DNA from: Minisyncoccota bacterium
GTDB lineage: Bacteria > Patescibacteriota > Minisyncoccia > Phycocordibacterales > JBAYLF01
Length of the DNA stretch: 64,000 nucleotides
Direction of reading: 5' to 3'
NCBI GenBank assembly: GCA_041664205.1
Contig: JBAYLF010000003.1
Location: 7,349 to 71,348, forward strand
Program-made: the position numbers and the translations under genes
Notes under the pieces: model-generated
Databases searched by the model: none
Seen by the model: the letters and a program-made list of their open reading frames with translations, nothing else
Told to the model about the DNA's origin: nothing
Shown here: in pieces, positions 12,568 through 58,164 of the stretch
Layout of the letters: each line of letters begins with the position of its first letter
Numbering within the stretch: position 1 is the stretch's first letter

Positions 12568-13611
12568 TTAATTTCTATCAAACATCGGGTTTAGTTGTTC
12601 TGTAACCCTTACAAAAGTTGTTCGTTTTGGAAGCTCTTTTAATTTGCGAGCGCCAACATAAGTGCAGGCAGATCTAAGTCCTCCAAGGATTTCTTGTATC
12701 GTTATTTCAACAGGACCTTTTAGAGGAACATCTACAGATCGTCCTTCGCTCGTCCTGTATTTTGCAACACCATTATTATGTTTCATCATCGACTCTTCAG
12801 AAGAAGAGCCATAAAAACGCAAATATTTTTTACCATCCTTTTCTATTATTTCTGATTCTGACTCTTCGTGCCCTGCAAGCATTCCGCCAAGCATTACGAA
12901 ATCGGCACCAGCGCCAAAAGCTTTTACAATATCTCCTGGAACCTGACATCCGCCGTCAGCGCAAATATGTCCACCAACGCCATGTGCAGCATCTGCGCAT
13001 TCGATAACTGCGGAAAGTTGCGGATAACCAACGCCTGTCATTTTTCTCGTAGTGCAAGCCGAACCAGAACCGATTCCGACTTTAACAATATCTGCACCCG
13101 AAAGAATAAGTTGCTCTGTCATCTCACCCGTCACGACATTACCAGCCATTATTATTGAGTTCGGAAATTTCTCGCGAATACTTTTTATGAAATCTGCGAA
13201 ACGCTCCGTGTAACCATTCGCAACATCTATACAAATATTTTTTAAAAAATTCTTTCCACCTTTTTTTGCAAAATTAGAAAGCTTAGAGAGATCGGCATCT
13301 TTTATCCCCATCGTATAAAAAACTTTGTCGGCTAATTTTTCTTTTTTATAAAATTGCAGAAGTTCATCAATCTCATAATGTTTATGAAAAGCAACCATCA
13401 TGTCATGTTTTGAAAACGATCGCGCCATAGACATAGTGCCAACACCATCCATATTAGAAGCAATAACTGGTATGCCTTCGAAAGTATTATTGTTATTTCT
13501 GAAAGCAAACTTTCGAGAAATATCGACATCTGCCCTACTATTAAGAGTTGAGCGCTTCGGCCTTAAAAGAACATCTTTGTAATCAAGCTTAACCTCTTCT
13601 TCTATTCTCAT
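12568..13611 (-). CDS. guaC: GMP reductase
   Basis: 347 aa. [22 protein letters not shown]...[14 protein letters not shown]...[11 protein letters not shown] is the IMPDH/GMPR TIM-barrel without a CBS insert, as in GuaC. Confidence 0.8.
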
Positions 13612-22057: not shown

Positions 22058-22774
22058 ATGGAACAAAAACAAAGTTTCGCATTAAATGCTCCCGTAGCTA
22101 TACTTATCGCCGGTTTATTTATAGCAGGCGCTATCGTTTATTCAAACTCGCCTAATAAAAATATTCAGAATAATCCGAACGGCAATGATGCTGCACAAGT
22201 GGCAAAAGACATTACTGTTGAACCTGTAAGTGAAAAGGATCATATATTAGGTGATCCAAAAGCAAAGGTTGTGCTTGTTGTTTACACAGATTTTGAATGC
22301 CCTTTCTGCAAAATGTTCCACAACACGATACAACAAGTTTACGACAATTATAAATCAGGTGGAAAAGTTGCCATTGTTTACAGAGAGTTTCCACTAACAC
22401 AGCTTCACTCAAAAGCTGCTAAAGAAGCTGAAGCTTCAGAATGTGCAGCTGATCAGGGTGGCAACGATGCATACTGGAAATTTGTAAATAGATTATATGA
22501 AATAACACCTTCCAACAATGGTTTAGATTCAGCACAATTACCTAAGATTGCACAGAATATTGGTCTTAATGTTGATACCTTCAATGATTGTCTTTCAAGC
22601 GGTAAATTCACTCAGAAAGTTAAAGACTCTGTAACTGCTGCTGTGAAAGCTGGCGGACAAGGATCTCCTTACTCAGTTATTGTAGCTAATGGAAAAAATA
22701 CTCCATTCGATCAAGGAGCGGCACCATTTGAAACAATGAAGCAAGTCCTTGATGATGCAATAGCTGGTAAATAA
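22058..22774 (+). CDS. DsbA-family thiol:disulfide oxidoreductase
   Basis: N-terminal TM anchor, thioredoxin fold with CPFC active site, KVVLVVYTDFECPFCKMFH. Confidence 0.75.
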   Translation: MEQKQSFALNAPVAILIAGLFIAGAIVYSNSPNKNIQNNPNGNDAAQVAKDITVEPVSEKDHILGDPKAKVVLVVYTDFECPFCKMFHNTIQQVYDNYKSGGKVAIVYREFPLTQLHSKAAKEAEASECAADQGGNDAYWKFVNRLYEITPSNNGLDSAQLPKIAQNIGLNVDTFNDCLSSGKFTQKVKDSVTAAVKAGGQGSPYSVIVANGKNTPFDQGAAPFETMKQVLDDAIAGK

Positions 22775-22792
22775 AAATAAAGTTTCCAATTT

Positions 22793-22822
22793 AAAAATCC
22801 CGCAATTGTTGCGGGATTTTTT
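22793..22822. terminator. bidirectional rho-independent terminator
   Basis: AAAAATCCCGCAATTGTTGCGGGATTTTTT sits between the convergent dsbA-like gene and the 22839..23126 gene. Confidence 0.7.
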
Positions 22823-22838
22823 GTAAGAATAAAATCTA

Positions 22839-23126
22839 TTAAGGATCAAGAAACTGTCTATCATGCCTGTTATTTGGATCAAGATATCTATCTTCTCTAT
22901 GACAGTGTGTGGGGAATGCAGAGTCATGAAAAAATTCATTAAAGCTAGCTATCATTTCTTCTGTTTTGTGTCTATCAGCAATAGCGCAATCTTCACAAAA
23001 ATCACCACCTTGAGCAAACGGATATCCGCAAACTTTACAACTAAGTTCTCTAGCCCCTTCATTTTCTTTGTTGTTTTCAATTCCGTGTGGATATAAAAGA
23101 ATCGCAAATTTTTTATTTTGACTCAT
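22839..23126 (-). CDS. small CxxC..CxxC zinc-ribbon protein, paralog B (95 aa)
   Basis: KKFAILLYPHGIENNKENEGARELSCKVCGYPFAQGGDFCEDC is about 60% identical to the N-terminal half of 23608..23844. It has its own copy of the conserved leader. Confidence 0.55.
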   Translation of the reverse strand: MSQNKKFAILLYPHGIENNKENEGARELSCKVCGYPFAQGGDFCEDCAIADRHKTEEMIASFNEFFHDSAFPTHCHREDRYLDPNNRHDRQFLDP

Positions 23127-23195
23127 AATTTTCTTTCAGTTTTCTAAAACAAACAATACTCTTTTAAATTAATAAAATCAAACTTTTGCAAAAGA

Positions 23196-23229
23196 AAAGG
23201 CCTTGCAGTGTTTAAACCGCAAGGCCTTG
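23196..23229 (-). terminator. rho-independent terminator
   Basis: GGCCTTGC-agtgtttaaacc-GCAAGGCC followed by a T-rich run on the - strand, downstream of 23247..23573. Confidence 0.6.
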
Positions 23230-23246
23230 AGTTTGGTTGATTGTTT

Positions 23247-23573
23247 TCAGTTTCTGTTTTTGACTTCTTCTGGGATGAAGTCACCGATCGTCGCTAAAGG
23301 AATTTCTCCGGCATCGTGTTGACGAAATAGTTCTTCAAATAATTCATCGACACCAGCATCAAATTCAGCCTGTTCTTGTAAGCTTGGAACTTCCTCTTTG
23401 CCGAGGAAATCCTGACACTCCTGTTGAGTATCAGCAACAAAAACAGTAACTTGAGTTGTGTTACAGACAACTGCATAACCTCCACCACAACAAGGAACGA
23501 TCATACAAGCATCCTTATCCCAAAAAGGTTTAGCCCAATCAGGACAAACGAAACCGCGTTCTGAAGTTTTCAT
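23247..23573 (-). CDS. Cys-rich small protein with acidic C-terminal tail (108 aa)
   Basis: FVCPDWAKPFWDKDACMIVPCCGGGYAVVCN has 6 Cys in 31 aa, followed by a D/E-rich tail. Codon usage is GC-richer. It is co-oriented 34 nt downstream of paralog A and ends with TGA. Confidence 0.55.
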   Translation of the reverse strand: MKTSERGFVCPDWAKPFWDKDACMIVPCCGGGYAVVCNTTQVTVFVADTQQECQDFLGKEEVPSLQEQAEFDAGVDELFEELFRQHDAGEIPLATIGDFIPEEVKNRN

Positions 23574-23607
23574 AACTAATAAAAGTGTAGCACGAATTTA
23601 AAATAAG

Positions 23608-23844
23608 TCAAGGAAAAAGACCTTGTATAGGGAGCGTAACTCCGTAAATAAAAGCATCGGAATCGCCAATATTTTCTCTAATTTTTACCCCACTTAAGTT
23701 AATACAGCAATCGCAACGCTCTCCACCTTGTGCAAACGGATATCCGCAAACCTTACAGCAGATATCTCTGATTCTGTCATTTTCTTGTTTATTTTCAGTT
23801 CTGGATGGATATAAAAGAATAGCAAAATTTTTAGTTCGACTCAT
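23608..23844 (-). CDS. small CxxC..CxxC zinc-ribbon protein, paralog A (78 aa from the MSRTK start)
   Basis: MSRTKNFAILLYPSRTENKQENDRIRDICCKVCGYPFAQGGERCDCC. The start was chosen at the ATG preceded by the conserved leader; the ORF track extends to 23910. Confidence 0.55.
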   Translation of the reverse strand: MSRTKNFAILLYPSRTENKQENDRIRDICCKVCGYPFAQGGERCDCCINLSGVKIRENIGDSDAFIYGVTLPIQGLFP

Positions 23845-23917
23845 ATTTAATTTCAGTTTTCTAACAAAAACAATACTCTTAAAAATTAATAAGAGCAAAT
23901 GAATCAGCACTTTTATA

Positions 23918-26836
23918 TTAGATGATCAAGCTTTTTAATTTACAGAACTCACATTTTTCATCATCGCAAAATTCTGTAAGAATTCTGCCTGACCAAACGC
24001 TATCAATAAGAGATTGGATATTTTTTGCCAGATCTGCGAGATCTGATCTTTCTATAGGAAGAGTTATTGTGTGGCATCTTCCTTTCTCATCTGGAGATAT
24101 GAACACAAGCGATGGAGTTATTTCTTTACCTTTAAATCTGTGATCAGATTCTAGAAGCATTTTATAAAATACAAGTTGGCGAAAATAACCACCGTCGGAA
24201 TTTTGAGTTTGTCCCTTTATTTGATTTACACTCATTTTACCTCGCGTTTTATAATCAAAAACTAGAACTTCATTTCCTGTATCTACTATCGCATCGAGTT
24301 TTCCATGAATAGGAACAATAACTTTTTTATCTTCAAAATCTGCAGAAAATTCGCTCTCGCTCCAACTTTCAGTAAAAATTTTTCCTGAAAGAGTAAAATG
24401 TTCGTAAAGACTTTTTGCAACAATAGGTGCGTCCTCCATCAGTTCTTCTAAAACTCTTTCCTTATCAACTTTTCGTAGAAGAGAGTTACTCATATATTCA
24501 CGAACTGTTTCTTCTATTATCTCTTGAATACGTTCAACACTTCTTTTTTGTTCAATCCAAACATGATTAAAAGCTAAGTGCATCGCATTCCCCTTCTCTG
24601 CACTTGGAGCTGAAGGCTCCGGCAATCTAAGAATACTCTTGTATATAAATCTGCTTGGACAATCAAGAAAATGATTTAATGCGGTCACAGAAAGTCCTTT
24701 TTCGGTTAATATCCTTTTAGTATAATTTAATATTTTTTCATCCTGATTAAAATTTTTCTTAGTATTAATCTCTAAACTATTTTTAATTTTGGGCAAAAGA
24801 GTATGAGAAACAAAATCTTCATCGAGCTCAGAAACAAAACGAAGAGAAGAAAGCATTTTCCCGTCTGCGTCTTTCGATGGAACAATAAGCACGATGTGCG
24901 ATTTAGCACGAGTAAGCGCTACGTAAAAAAGTCTTCGATTATCACGAATTTCATCTCCTTCGCTTAAAAGTTTTTGTGTTGGAAGAACAAAAAATGAATT
25001 TCTGCCACGAGAGCTCCATGATTCTTCGGTAACATAAGGAAGAAAACAATAATCAAATTCTAATCCCTTACTGCCGTGCGCAGTCATTACTTTAATCTGA
25101 AGGTCTAAAGTGCCAACGCCTATTTTTATACTTTTTTCTTCTGAAGATATCTTATACGCAATAAGCTTTTCCATAAGTTCCATTGGGTCTCTAATATTTT
25201 TTTCTTTAGATATACCCTCCGCAAGTTCAAGAATAGCTCTCCAAACTTCAACAAACGCAGGATCTTTTATTATTATCTCCAAAAGACCGCTCTTTTCCAC
25301 AACACCAATAATAAAGCTTATAGGGTCATCATTTACAAGGTCAGACATCAATTCAGAAATAGCGGGGATTTTTGAGATAACTTCTTTTGAACTGCCTTTA
25401 TTCAGATCTTTAAGAATTTCTATTCTTGATTCAAAATCAATATTCCATAATCCTGAAGCTATACTTTTCGCCAAACAATAATCTTTTGATTGGTCATGAA
25501 GAAATTCTATAATAGAAAAGAAAATCAATCCTACTGGATGTGAAAAAATATCTATACTACGTTCTGAGGAAACAGGAATGCCAGCAGATTCGCAAATTCT
25601 AATTATCCTATCGACATCTCGATTTGTTTTTGTAATGATTGCAACAGTTTTGTTCGGCTCATTTTCTGTAATATTTTTCAATTGAGAAATCATATATTCT
25701 TCCCCAGTATAAATATCAGGTGCTTCTATTATATCTACAGGCCTAATTTCTTTATCACCCGAAGCCTTAAGTCTGACTCGGAGATGAGAATATTGTCCTG
25801 ATTCATAATTTTTCTCAATCATTTTAAAACTACTATCTAAAATAGCTTGGTGCGACCTGTAATTATTTTCAAGAAAAATAGTCTTGATGCCTGGCCAAAT
25901 CTTTTCAAAGTGCAAAAAGTTTTCTACTGATGCGCCTTGAAAACGATAAATTGCCTGCTTCTCATCACCGACTATAAAAACATTCGGGTTTTCAAAAAAA
26001 TCTGCCAAAAGCTTTATTATCATATTCTGCGAATCATTAGTATCTTGATGTTCATCTACCAAGATATAAAGAAATTTTTCCTGAAGAAGACGAAGTAAAA
26101 GCTCATCTTTACGAAGGACTAATAAAAGTTCAAAGATAAGATCATCAAAATCCATAAGCTTTTTTTCTTTTTTATCTTTTTCATATTGTTCATATATATC
26201 TGCAGCAAAAATAGTTTTCTCGCATTTCTCTATCTGTTTTTTTGCATCTGCTTTAAGTTCACCTTTGGAAGCACCTCGTGTAGAAATAAAAGACTCATCA
26301 TTTTTAATTCTCTCAATTTCTTCTTTAGCAAAATCTCTGACCATTTCTGGAGTTAAAGCTTCTTTTTTAGATTCGTGAATTAAATTTAAGATATGCTTCA
26401 AATAAAGATCTGGTTTACCCATTGGGCGTAATAAATTAAATTTTTCGCCACTTAAAATATTTCTTATTAAAACATCAGAATCAATTTCAGTCATCTGACG
26501 AAAACCATAGAGATGAACAAAATGATCATTGAATTCACTTATAACAGAACCTGCAAAACCGTGGAATGTGCAAATTTTTATTTCATCTGCACGGCTACCC
26601 ATAATTTCACGCAATTTTTGTTTTATTGTTTTAACCCCAGCTTCAGTAAATGTAATGGCCAAAATACCTGACGGCGGAGTATCAGTTTTTCGTAAAATAT
26701 TTGCGATCCTTAGAGTAAGTATTGTTGTCTTTCCTGTTCCTGGACCTGCCACAACCATCACTGGACCTTCGATAGAATCAACGGCTTCTTTCTGTTTTGT
26801 ATTGAGTTTTTTATAAAGCTTATCGAACGTTTCCAT
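23918..26836 (-). CDS. UvrD/PcrA-family helicase fused to a C-terminal PD-(D/E)xK (RecB/Cas4-like) nuclease with a Cys cluster
   Basis: N-terminus VMVVAGPGTGKTT (Walker A), DEHQDTN and VGDEKQAIYRFQGA helicase motifs. The C-terminus has DAIVD...VFDYKT...YFRQLVFYKM and a terminal CDDEKCEFCK. Confidence 0.8.
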   Translation of the reverse strand: METFDKLYKKLNTKQKEAVDSIEGPVMVVAGPGTGKTTILTLRIANILRKTDTPPSGILAITFTEAGVKTIKQKLREIMGSRADEIKICTFHGFAGSVISEFNDHFVHLYGFRQMTEIDSDVLIRNILSGEKFNLLRPMGKPDLYLKHILNLIHESKKEALTPEMVRDFAKEEIERIKNDESFISTRGASKGELKADAKKQIEKCEKTIFAADIYEQYEKDKKEKKLMDFDDLIFELLLVLRKDELLLRLLQEKFLYILVDEHQDTNDSQNMIIKLLADFFENPNVFIVGDEKQAIYRFQGASVENFLHFEKIWPGIKTIFLENNYRSHQAILDSSFKMIEKNYESGQYSHLRVRLKASGDKEIRPVDIIEAPDIYTGEEYMISQLKNITENEPNKTVAIITKTNRDVDRIIRICESAGIPVSSERSIDIFSHPVGLIFFSIIEFLHDQSKDYCLAKSIASGLWNIDFESRIEILKDLNKGSSKEVISKIPAISELMSDLVNDDPISFIIGVVEKSGLLEIIIKDPAFVEVWRAILELAEGISKEKNIRDPMELMEKLIAYKISSEEKSIKIGVGTLDLQIKVMTAHGSKGLEFDYCFLPYVTEESWSSRGRNSFFVLPTQKLLSEGDEIRDNRRLFYVALTRAKSHIVLIVPSKDADGKMLSSLRFVSELDEDFVSHTLLPKIKNSLEINTKKNFNQDEKILNYTKRILTEKGLSVTALNHFLDCPSRFIYKSILRLPEPSAPSAEKGNAMHLAFNHVWIEQKRSVERIQEIIEETVREYMSNSLLRKVDKERVLEELMEDAPIVAKSLYEHFTLSGKIFTESWSESEFSADFEDKKVIVPIHGKLDAIVDTGNEVLVFDYKTRGKMSVNQIKGQTQNSDGGYFRQLVFYKMLLESDHRFKGKEITPSLVFISPDEKGRCHTITLPIERSDLADLAKNIQSLIDSVWSGRILTEFCDDEKCEFCKLKSLII

Positions 26837-57981: not shown

Positions 57982-58053
57982 ACAAATGATATAAACAAGT
58001 AAATAGCATGACTATAATACCAACTAGCATAATAATCCAAACAATTTCCATAT
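57982..58053 (-). CDS. possible 23-aa hydrophobic micropeptide
   Basis: MEIVWIIMLVGIIVMLFTCLYHL with a GAAAGGT SD 8 nt upstream. Very short, so speculative. Confidence 0.2.
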
Positions 58054-58164
58054 AATTACCTTTCAGTTTTTTGTTTTAACTGTGAACCTAGTTTCTTTTA
58101 AAGGAACTCGATTACCTTTATGTTGTATCAGATTATGAAGTTTTATCAAACATTTTGAATAAAA

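Follow-up and report, generated by a model that had tools for sequence, protein, structure and literature searches.

Several described systems invite comparison with a pair of neighbouring genes for small zinc-ribbon proteins. The zinc-ribbon ribosomal proteins L31, L33, L36 and S14 exist as C+/C- pairs of paralogues under the control of Zur, and some genes for small ribosomal proteins are directly preceded by a conserved non-coding leader, as catalogued in Rfam. The generic C4 or double zinc ribbons (DZR_2, PF18912; DZR, PF12773) carry two CxxC knuckles about ten residues apart, and tandem duplicates may keep the promoter of their ancestor, such that promoter-proximal region, coding sequence and stop codon are all contained in the repeat unit. 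Here, we consider a locus that resembles each of these systems in part. It is located in a 64,000-nt stretch of a Minisyncoccota genome (assembly GCA_041664205.1, contig JBAYLF010000003.1, positions 7,349 to 71,348), hereafter called the window, and comprises three small open reading frames (ORFs) on the minus strand, A, C and B, which lie between the stop codons of a gene for a helicase-nuclease and a convergent DsbA-like gene. A previous interpretation based on the letters of the DNA (the sequence-only reading) had described the trio as a mini-operon with a shared regulatory input and a possible metal- or redox-linked function. Our analysis makes it likely that A and B go back to an old tandem duplication of a single gene, which carried its promoter and leader along, and that copy A later lost its tail.

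Inspection of the ORFs confirms the three genes at the positions originally assigned to them. Gene A (23608..23844; WCW87_01905) encodes 78 amino acids (aa) from its ATG, gene C (23247..23573; WCW87_01900) 108 aa and gene B (22839..23126; WCW87_01895) 95 aa, and protein database searches found all three proteins in one assembly only, a metagenome-assembled genome (MAG) of a Candidatus Paceibacterota bacterium. Some annotation pipelines place the start of A at an upstream GTG, which gives a protein of 100 aa. This start lies too far upstream, since it is the ATG at 23844 that corresponds to the start of B and to the starts of all relatives in the alignment. As first proposed, A and B are true paralogues, with 46% identity over 74 aa (BLASTP, E=7e-24). 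Their C-termini, by contrast, are not unrelated, as had been believed: the DNA of the two genes can be aligned through the stop codon, with A lacking 51 nt (17 codons) in frame. The deletion removed from A a C-terminal motif that is characteristic of the protein family described below and represented in B by PTHCHREDRYLDPNNRHDRQFLDP. The duplicated unit as a whole begins at a distance of about 60 nt from the ATG on its 5' side and ends shortly after the stop codon.

The divergence of the two copies indicates that the duplication is old, since the number of synonymous substitutions per site (dS) reaches about 0.8 in the shared N-terminal module and the codons further downstream are close to saturation. 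For codons 1-50, which encode the module, the method of Nei and Gojobori gives proportions of synonymous and nonsynonymous differences (pS and pN) of 0.48 and 0.225, respectively, a dS of ~0.77 and an omega of 0.35, with a significant synonymous excess (Fisher p=0.009), whereas codons 51-73 are near saturation at a pS of 0.75 and a pN of 0.46. When the rest of the family is used as the outgroup, both A and B retain 16 of the 21 family-conserved module positions, all four zinc ligands included, while the conserved positions of the C-terminus are kept at 1 of 9 sites in A and 6 of 9 in B. Judging from these patterns, both zinc-ribbon modules are under purifying selection, and A, which has kept as many module positions as B, is a paralogue that lacks the tail but remains under constraint, and not a pseudogene in decay. 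According to the scenario that we favour, one small gene would have been duplicated in tandem together with its own weak promoter and a short, unstructured 5' untranslated region (5'UTR), and copy A would later have lost 17 codons in frame, so as to encode the zinc-ribbon module alone.

Upstream of each copy lies the conserved leader of about 55 nt that the sequence-only reading had pointed out. Leader A (23845..23899, minus strand) and leader B (23127..23182, minus strand) contain a 55-nt direct repeat (23845-23899 and 23128-23182) with 85% identity, whose 30-nt core is found at only these two sites in the window, with none expected. Both copies are best described as a promoter-proximal region plus a short 5'UTR without a Shine-Dalgarno (SD) sequence, and both include the element AGAAAACTGAA, at 23852-23862 in leader A and 23135-23145 in leader B. 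In the alignment of the two leaders, 9 of 58 positions differ, compared with 14 of 29 synonymous sites in the Nei-Gojobori (NG86) comparison of A and B (p=0.002). The constraint on the leader thus seems comparable to that on the most conserved coding blocks, an estimate that depends on the neutral yardstick chosen. A cis-regulatory input common to A and B, as postulated earlier, is very probable, given that the leaders are still 85% identical whereas the C-terminal halves of the genes are near saturation, but it does not call for a special regulatory device: each gene has its own leader because the duplicated unit took in the promoter and the 5'UTR. Through the retained leader, transcription and translation of A and B would most likely be subject to the same input. 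In its repeat unit and the subsequent internal deletion of one copy, the locus resembles other tandem duplicates that have kept their promoter. Its mechanism does not differ from that of ordinary cases; the locus is unusual only in that its two copies are separated by an unrelated orphan gene that has a terminator of its own, and in that the leaders have remained 85% identical despite the age of the duplication (dS ~0.8).

The leaders show few signs of a more elaborate regulatory function. A 5'UTR that is rich in A and lacks an SD sequence is normal in this genome, since only 3 of the 36 long genes in the window have an SD core (GGAG, GAGG or AGGA at -22..-4) and A/T-rich upstream regions are the rule; translation initiation in the window as a whole looks largely SD-independent. 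The best promoter candidate identified by hand is TTGCTC-17-TATTGT in leader A and TTGATT-17-TATTGT in leader B. If used, this candidate would set the transcriptional start about 20 nt before the ATG, leaving AGAAAACTGAA as the body of a short 5'UTR. Canonical promoters of the type TTGACA-17-TATAAT are common in the window. Like the leaders of ribosomal protein genes, the A and B leaders are conserved non-coding segments directly upstream of a small protein gene, but they differ from them in having neither structure beyond that of shuffled sequences nor a common fold, with marginal conservation across lineages. Their folding z-scores relative to shuffles are -0.29, 0.35, 0.59 and -0.64, with a different predicted structure for each copy. 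In a permissive Rfam scan, the leaders produced only sub-threshold matches, which were either on the wrong strand or centred on the terminator of C, and no family reached its gathering threshold on either strand of the window, be it a tRNA, an rRNA, a riboswitch or a ribosomal protein leader. We therefore rejected the idea of a structured leader RNA on the grounds of these folding and Rfam results. Neither leader contains a conserved palindrome resembling a Zur box. An upstream ORF was also discarded as an explanation, because ORFs ending 8-13 nt before the ATG (at the conserved CTGA) are not enriched, occurring in 5 of 9 independent family leaders and 33 of 127 background genes (p=0.12).

Two further recurrences of leader-like strings were noted in the window. 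The sequence-only reading had reported that AAAACTGAAA reappears upstream of a 23-aa ORF at 58053; the match lies at 58061. With 3 matches against 0.97 expected, two of which are the duplicated leader itself, this recurrence does not exceed chance; the micropeptide ORF in question (57982-58070, minus strand) would encode a hydrophobic peptide (MEIVWIIMLVGIIVMLFTCLYHL) and is preceded by AAAACTGAAAGgtaattatATG, and the 10-mer it has in common with the A and B leaders occurs at chance frequency. In addition, a string similar to AACTGAAAAyAA, which resembles the leader core, is found three times on the minus strand, namely in the 5' coding parts of A and B (23780-23800 and 23062-23082, around codons 15-20) and at 23232-23252, across the stop codon of C (AGAAACTGAAAACAATC). 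Its recurrence is probably an effect of the A-rich composition.

The relatives of B came to light in a HMMER search with the shared module. Performed without an index against 1.84 billion representative sequences, it retrieved eight further small proteins of 81-99 aa with E-values between 2e-9 and 8e-6, as well as weaker matches with E-values as high as 7e-4, from which two proteins of 72 and 114 aa were taken into the family alignment; one more member was added by a later search. The family is present in about ten metagenomic lineages that resemble the Candidate Phyla Radiation (CPR), and its members typically measure about 95 aa. They start with a β-strand and a loop of the consensus [FL]AIxIDPSGxGD, followed by an invariant zinc ribbon (CxxCG[YW]PxAxxGxxCxxC, residues ~30-47), a long helix and, finally, the C-terminal motif PxH-x3-4-GY[IL]DP-x2-R-x2-R-x-[LI]-[LI]-D-[DP]. 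Against the hidden Markov model (HMM) of the family, B scores 123.7 bits and A 93.3 bits. B is a full-length member, with C30, C33, C44 and C47 as its predicted zinc ligands. At the DPSGxGD loop, both copies depart from the consensus, with YPSRTEN in A and YPHGIEN in B. The A/B pair thus forms a divergent branch of the family, given that both copies differ from the consensus at its D, G and D. An AlphaFold2 (AF2) model of B reaches a mean predicted local distance difference test (pLDDT) score of 73.6 and places the long helix after the zinc ribbon; a search with this model found no structural neighbour. The helix is basic in most family members, whereas B itself is acidic, with an isoelectric point (pI) of 5.4.

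In line with the initial assessment that none of the three proteins belongs to a known family, library searches gave no curated match for A, B or C. Pfam yielded only sub-threshold matches to generic zinc ribbons, with B reaching 16.9 bits against DZR_2 (E=0.0055; cut-off 27) and A giving no match, and neither NCBIfam nor PHROGs nor PADLOC contained a model matching the family. Weak DZR_2 matches were obtained for 10 of 12 family members, whose pattern CxxCG[YW]P..A..G..C..C indeed shares with the double zinc ribbons the spacing of its two knuckles; the same knuckle pattern exists in unrelated proteins, including ComF-like and membrane proteins. The best sequence match in the PDB (E=0.012) covers the zinc knuckles alone. 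Only 1 of 12 members matches DksA/TraR (PF01258; E=0.12), and in these proteins a coiled coil lies N-terminal to the zinc finger, unlike the long helix of B, which follows the zinc ribbon in the AF2 model. A word-indexed search of 5.8 billion clusters, representing about 15 billion proteins, returned nothing but self matches for A and B, and the A/B alignment had no match in a scan of metagenomes. As the family alignment was too divergent for an automatic choice of pattern, we wrote a degenerate zinc-ribbon pattern by hand, which in a metagenome scan picked up 18 loci, including two true family members (2/18), and in a scan of viral sequences a single match that does not belong to the family. 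A search by tblastn with B and C in 50,697 phage records gave no significant result. A phage origin was consequently rejected, on the basis of the tblastn search and the lack of PHROGs matches. A literature search for small zinc-ribbon proteins of Patescibacteria gave no papers. One candidate for a second instance of the same module with a different tail, the protein P0009, had to be discarded: its contig (L014, 1017 nt) is 100% identical to locus L003 until, at a single point within the family gene, it switches to 128 nt of unrelated, GC-rich sequence, which makes it a probable assembly chimera with an untrustworthy C-terminus.

The family alignment also bears on two readings that the layout of the locus might suggest, namely that A and B are precursors of ribosomally synthesized and post-translationally modified peptides (RiPPs), with an N-terminal leader and a variable core, or a Zur-type C+/C- pair of ribosomal protein paralogues. 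Both share with the locus a superficial pattern of two adjacent small genes with a zinc ribbon, a conserved N-terminus and divergent C-termini, and weak matches to the zinc knuckles of eL37 and L37ae were indeed seen (E 0.1-0.3). However, the C-terminus of the family is conserved rather than hypervariable, A differs from B by a deletion, and no modification enzyme, transporter or peptidase is encoded nearby. Four cysteines are kept in both copies, which are thus not a C+/C- pair. Although A and B resemble the ribosomal pairs in being small zinc-ribbon proteins duplicated in one genome, the family shows no similarity to ribosomal proteins above noise, and B is acidic: for L31, L32, L33, L36, S14 and eL37, there was no Pfam or NCBIfam match, and a profile search of the PDB reached only E 0.1-4 for eL37. 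Homology to ordinary ribosomal or zinc-finger proteins, which would have spoken against the novelty of the trio, was accordingly not detected above significance in Pfam, NCBIfam or PDB profile searches. We regard these two readings as extremely improbable and, in light of the family alignment, as effectively refuted. A further likeness to the ribosomal pairs, the proximity of several family members to translation genes (infC-rpmI-rplT, tig, RsmE, RluA-like and BipA), means little, because such genes are abundant in small CPR genomes.

The gene between the two copies of the duplicated unit has a different character. Gene C encodes a protein with six cysteines in its N-terminal half (C10, C23, C28, C29, C37 and C53), which are spread over 44 residues, and not over 31 as previously counted, and an acidic, helical tail (pI 4.2). 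The earlier observation of a GC-richer codon usage holds for its overall GC content (0.42) but not for the codon usage itself. The GC content at third codon positions (GC3) is 0.29, compared with 0.254 ± 0.037 for the host, and its in-frame codon log-likelihood ratio (LLR) is 0.288 per codon, compared with 0.298 ± 0.067. The extra GC can therefore be attributed to amino-acid composition rather than to foreign codon usage. In the word-indexed search, C matched only itself, and it gave no match in Pfam, NCBIfam, PHROG, PADLOC or phage searches; the AF2 model obtained from its single sequence is uninformative (pLDDT 52). The gene is closed by its own intrinsic terminator, as had been recognized before, with a 13-bp stem that includes 7 GC pairs and is followed by a T run (23187..23228, minus strand). 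A promoter-like site detected by a consensus scan (TTGACT-16-TACACT, with TG before the second hexamer; 23584..23611, minus strand) overlaps the stop codon of A, close to a weak 5-bp hairpin (23609-23625). The gap of only 34 nt between A and C, on which their proposed co-transcription was based, is real, but co-transcription is not established, given the promoter-like site and the hairpin at the end of A. C is thus a native-looking orphan gene, equipped with its own promoter-like site and terminator, that lies between the two copies.

At this point, it is worth asking whether part of the locus could be devoid of function, with A a decaying duplicate, C a spurious ORF in lineage-specific junk, or both. 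The loss of the C-terminal motif from A and its codon score of 0.135 per codon, lower than that of every long host gene, are compatible with decay, and B, for comparison, scores 0.266 in frame. C, in turn, lacks homologues among about 15 billion proteins, open frames of at least 108 codons arise in 4.6% of shuffles of the 1.1-kb region, and A, B and C have each been found in no more than one MAG. Yet the deletion in A is in frame, and its four zinc ligands and 16 of 21 module positions have been kept despite a dS of ~0.8. C is host-like in its annotated frame only, since none of the remaining five frames exceeds an LLR of 0.05 and four are negative; it has a normal GC3, a promoter-like site in front of it and a strong terminator behind it. 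We therefore judge a non-functional A or C to be quite unlikely and retain the view of A as a constrained paralogue and C as a coding-like, genome-specific orphan.

The genomic surroundings argue against a functional tie between the trio and its neighbours. The insert as a whole, a lineage-specific segment of about 1.1 kb (22775..23917, minus strand), extends from the stop of the DsbA-like gene (22058-22774, plus strand), identified by NCBIfam matches to thioredoxin-like proteins, to the stop of the 972-aa UvrD/PD-(D/E)XK helicase-nuclease gene (23918-26836, minus strand), identified by its domain matches. A perfect 13-bp inverted repeat with flanking A and T runs, located between B and the DsbA-like gene (22793..22821), is probably a bidirectional terminator for these two genes. 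A related locus, L001, encodes a helicase with 53% identity and shows the same order of helicase, DsbA, exonuclease and hisS as the window. There, helicase and DsbA genes are likewise convergent, with overlapping stop regions (12821-12850), and no homologue of A, B or C is found in the 22.8 kb available. The relatives of B, on the other hand, are single-copy genes in unrelated contexts, next to NUDIX genes, tig (trigger factor), an RluA-like pseudouridine synthase gene, enolase or BipA, to EamA (two loci) or RsmE (two loci), or to a DsbD-like gene and infC-rpmI-rplT, with neither a helicase neighbour nor a fixed partner at any of the approximately ten family loci. The suggested link of the mini-operon to the helicase is thus not supported, and the trio would form an insert within a convergent pair of housekeeping genes, with no functional tie to the helicase. 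The complete trio is absent from the related loci compared, whereas B itself belongs to a conserved, if rare, family. A defence-island reading was also rejected: PADLOC contains no model for A, B or C, the GajB-type matches of the helicase reflect its generic UvrD fold, and in L001 the helicase gene lies in housekeeping synteny.

The EamA transporter gene is divergent from the family gene in both loci concerned (L030, 367-1416; L033, 2576-3520), and the gene for the 16S rRNA methyltransferase RsmE is convergent in both of its loci (L004, 3612-3854; L034, 438-1139). These recurring neighbours probably represent residual synteny of related genomes rather than functional linkage. In two distant lineages, the family gene is followed after 14-18 nt by the start of a gene for a conserved mini-protein of at least 60-76 aa (L003, 1018-1245; L033, 3918-4100), which has the pattern MADxIPCxHCG..E..HE...RGY.[IV]SL..C..KGY.P and no Pfam match. 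This arrangement suggests that the two genes form a cassette in part of the family. The helicase-nuclease itself ends in a cysteine triad in the window (EFCDDEKCEFCKLKSLII; 23918-23975, minus strand), which is missing from the end of its L001 orthologue (...SVWSGKLRLQNQING; 12800-12850), while an upstream cysteine (F[LI][DE]CP) is kept in both. The protein may be an iron-sulphur cluster nuclease in one lineage that has lost the cluster in the other, or the end of the L001 protein may have been remodelled by the overlap with DsbA.

Against this background, the proposal that A, C and B constitute a metal or redox module, coupled to the helicase-nuclease or to the DsbA-like oxidoreductase, appears very improbable. 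It draws on the fact that all three proteins contain cysteines and that B is convergent with the DsbA-like gene, on locus L031, where the family gene is divergent from a gene for a DsbD/thioredoxin fusion, and on the different small CxxC protein encoded directly 3' of the family gene in L003 and L033. However, thiol-oxidoreductase neighbours in two of about ten contexts are weak evidence, the remaining contexts are heterogeneous, and in L001 helicase and DsbA genes adjoin each other without the trio. Moreover, C has no detectable homologue and is not seen beside family members at other loci. We also discarded the possibility that it is a diverged copy of the L003/L033 partner, with an hhalign probability of 0.2% and Smith-Waterman (SW) p-values of 0.18 and 0.63. 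In a comparison of C with the ORF downstream of the family gene in L009, p was ~0.008 before correction for 10 comparisons, and we regard this similarity as unproven.

A different rival concerns the leader. Its core, AGAAAAyCTGAA, is located 8-11 nt before the ATG and could be an operator or mRNA site bound by the zinc-ribbon proteins themselves or by a dedicated regulator, such that autoregulation, reminiscent of the feedback exerted on ribosomal protein leaders, would be conserved across the family. In support of this notion, the core is found 10-11 nt before the ATG of distant orthologues, as cAGAAAACCTGAA..ATG in L002 (P0018) and as cAGAAAATCTGAA..ATG in L030 (P0007), and in 224 kb of sequence it precedes family genes in three lineages, with a single occurrence at any other place. 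The L002 and L030 leaders are strongly alike (SW p<0.001) and have a 5' hairpin in common, and the helix after the zinc ribbon is basic in most members. The connection to the window is much less clear, however. Its leaders are only marginally similar to those of L002 or L030 (gapped SW p ~0.01-0.04), a score that 4-8 of 77 unrelated upstream regions also attain, and an ungapped comparison with the orthologue leaders is not significant. The choice of the motif was made post hoc, and it is absent from five other family lineages, the leader is A-rich like ordinary upstream regions of this genome and free of RNA structure, and B itself is acidic. Conserved autoregulation is therefore an unlikely explanation in our view. 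A more far-reaching reading would regard the family as an unrecognized, CPR-specific regulatory or translation-associated factor whose expression is set by the AGAAAAyCTGAA element, possibly through autoregulation, with A, expressed from the same leader, as a natural competitor or partner of B, together with the orphan acidic protein C; we consider this very improbable. In L002 (5045-5133) and L030 (1550-1639), the leaders consist of the 5' hairpin (CTTGTTCTTTGGAAAGGACAAG and CCTTGTTCTTTGGAAAGACAGG, respectively) followed by cAGAAAAyCTGAA..GAATTTTATG, a combination that may represent a conserved 5'UTR element of that subfamily.

Several points weigh against an old tandem duplication with promoter and leader as the full account of the locus. 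A promoter scan called no consensus-grade sigma-70 promoter in either leader, and the TTGnnn-17-TATTGT assignment is manual and weak, matching the consensus at 7-8 of 12 positions. With no terminator between the helicase gene and A, transcripts could read through into A. When the leader (9/58) is compared with the third positions of conserved codons (7/28) rather than with synonymous sites in general, its divergence is not significantly lower (p=0.38). The codon score of A is below the minimum of the long host genes (0.153), and comparison with a single syntenic relative leaves an insertion in the window indistinguishable from a loss in L001. Finally, any mechanism at the level of the proteins is pure conjecture, considering the acidity of B (pI 5.4) and the lack of structural neighbours of its model. 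We infer that the family protein may work in the cytoplasm as a zinc-ribbon adaptor, with a nucleic acid or another protein as its partner and with the C-terminal motif as its effector or partner surface, and the tail-less A may share or compete for the ligand of the module. Such a specific biochemical role is held with much less confidence than the evolutionary and cis-element account, which remains the likely one.

Collectively, our findings indicate that the apparent purpose-built regulatory mini-operon goes back to an old tandem duplication of the ordinary kind, in which promoter and leader were copied together with the gene. The data do not bear out a connection with the helicase, with redox chemistry or with autoregulation, and the novelty of the locus is modest, without bearing on a long-standing question. 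What is new is that B defines a rare, unannotated family of small proteins, which is built on a known zinc-ribbon motif, has distinctive terminal motifs, lacks a curated model as well as a structural neighbour, and in some lineages is accompanied by another conserved mini-protein encoded directly downstream. Given how incompletely the small proteins of CPR bacteria have been catalogued, a database model could be built from the family alignment, and the naturally tail-less paralogue A provides a ready-made domain-deletion comparison.

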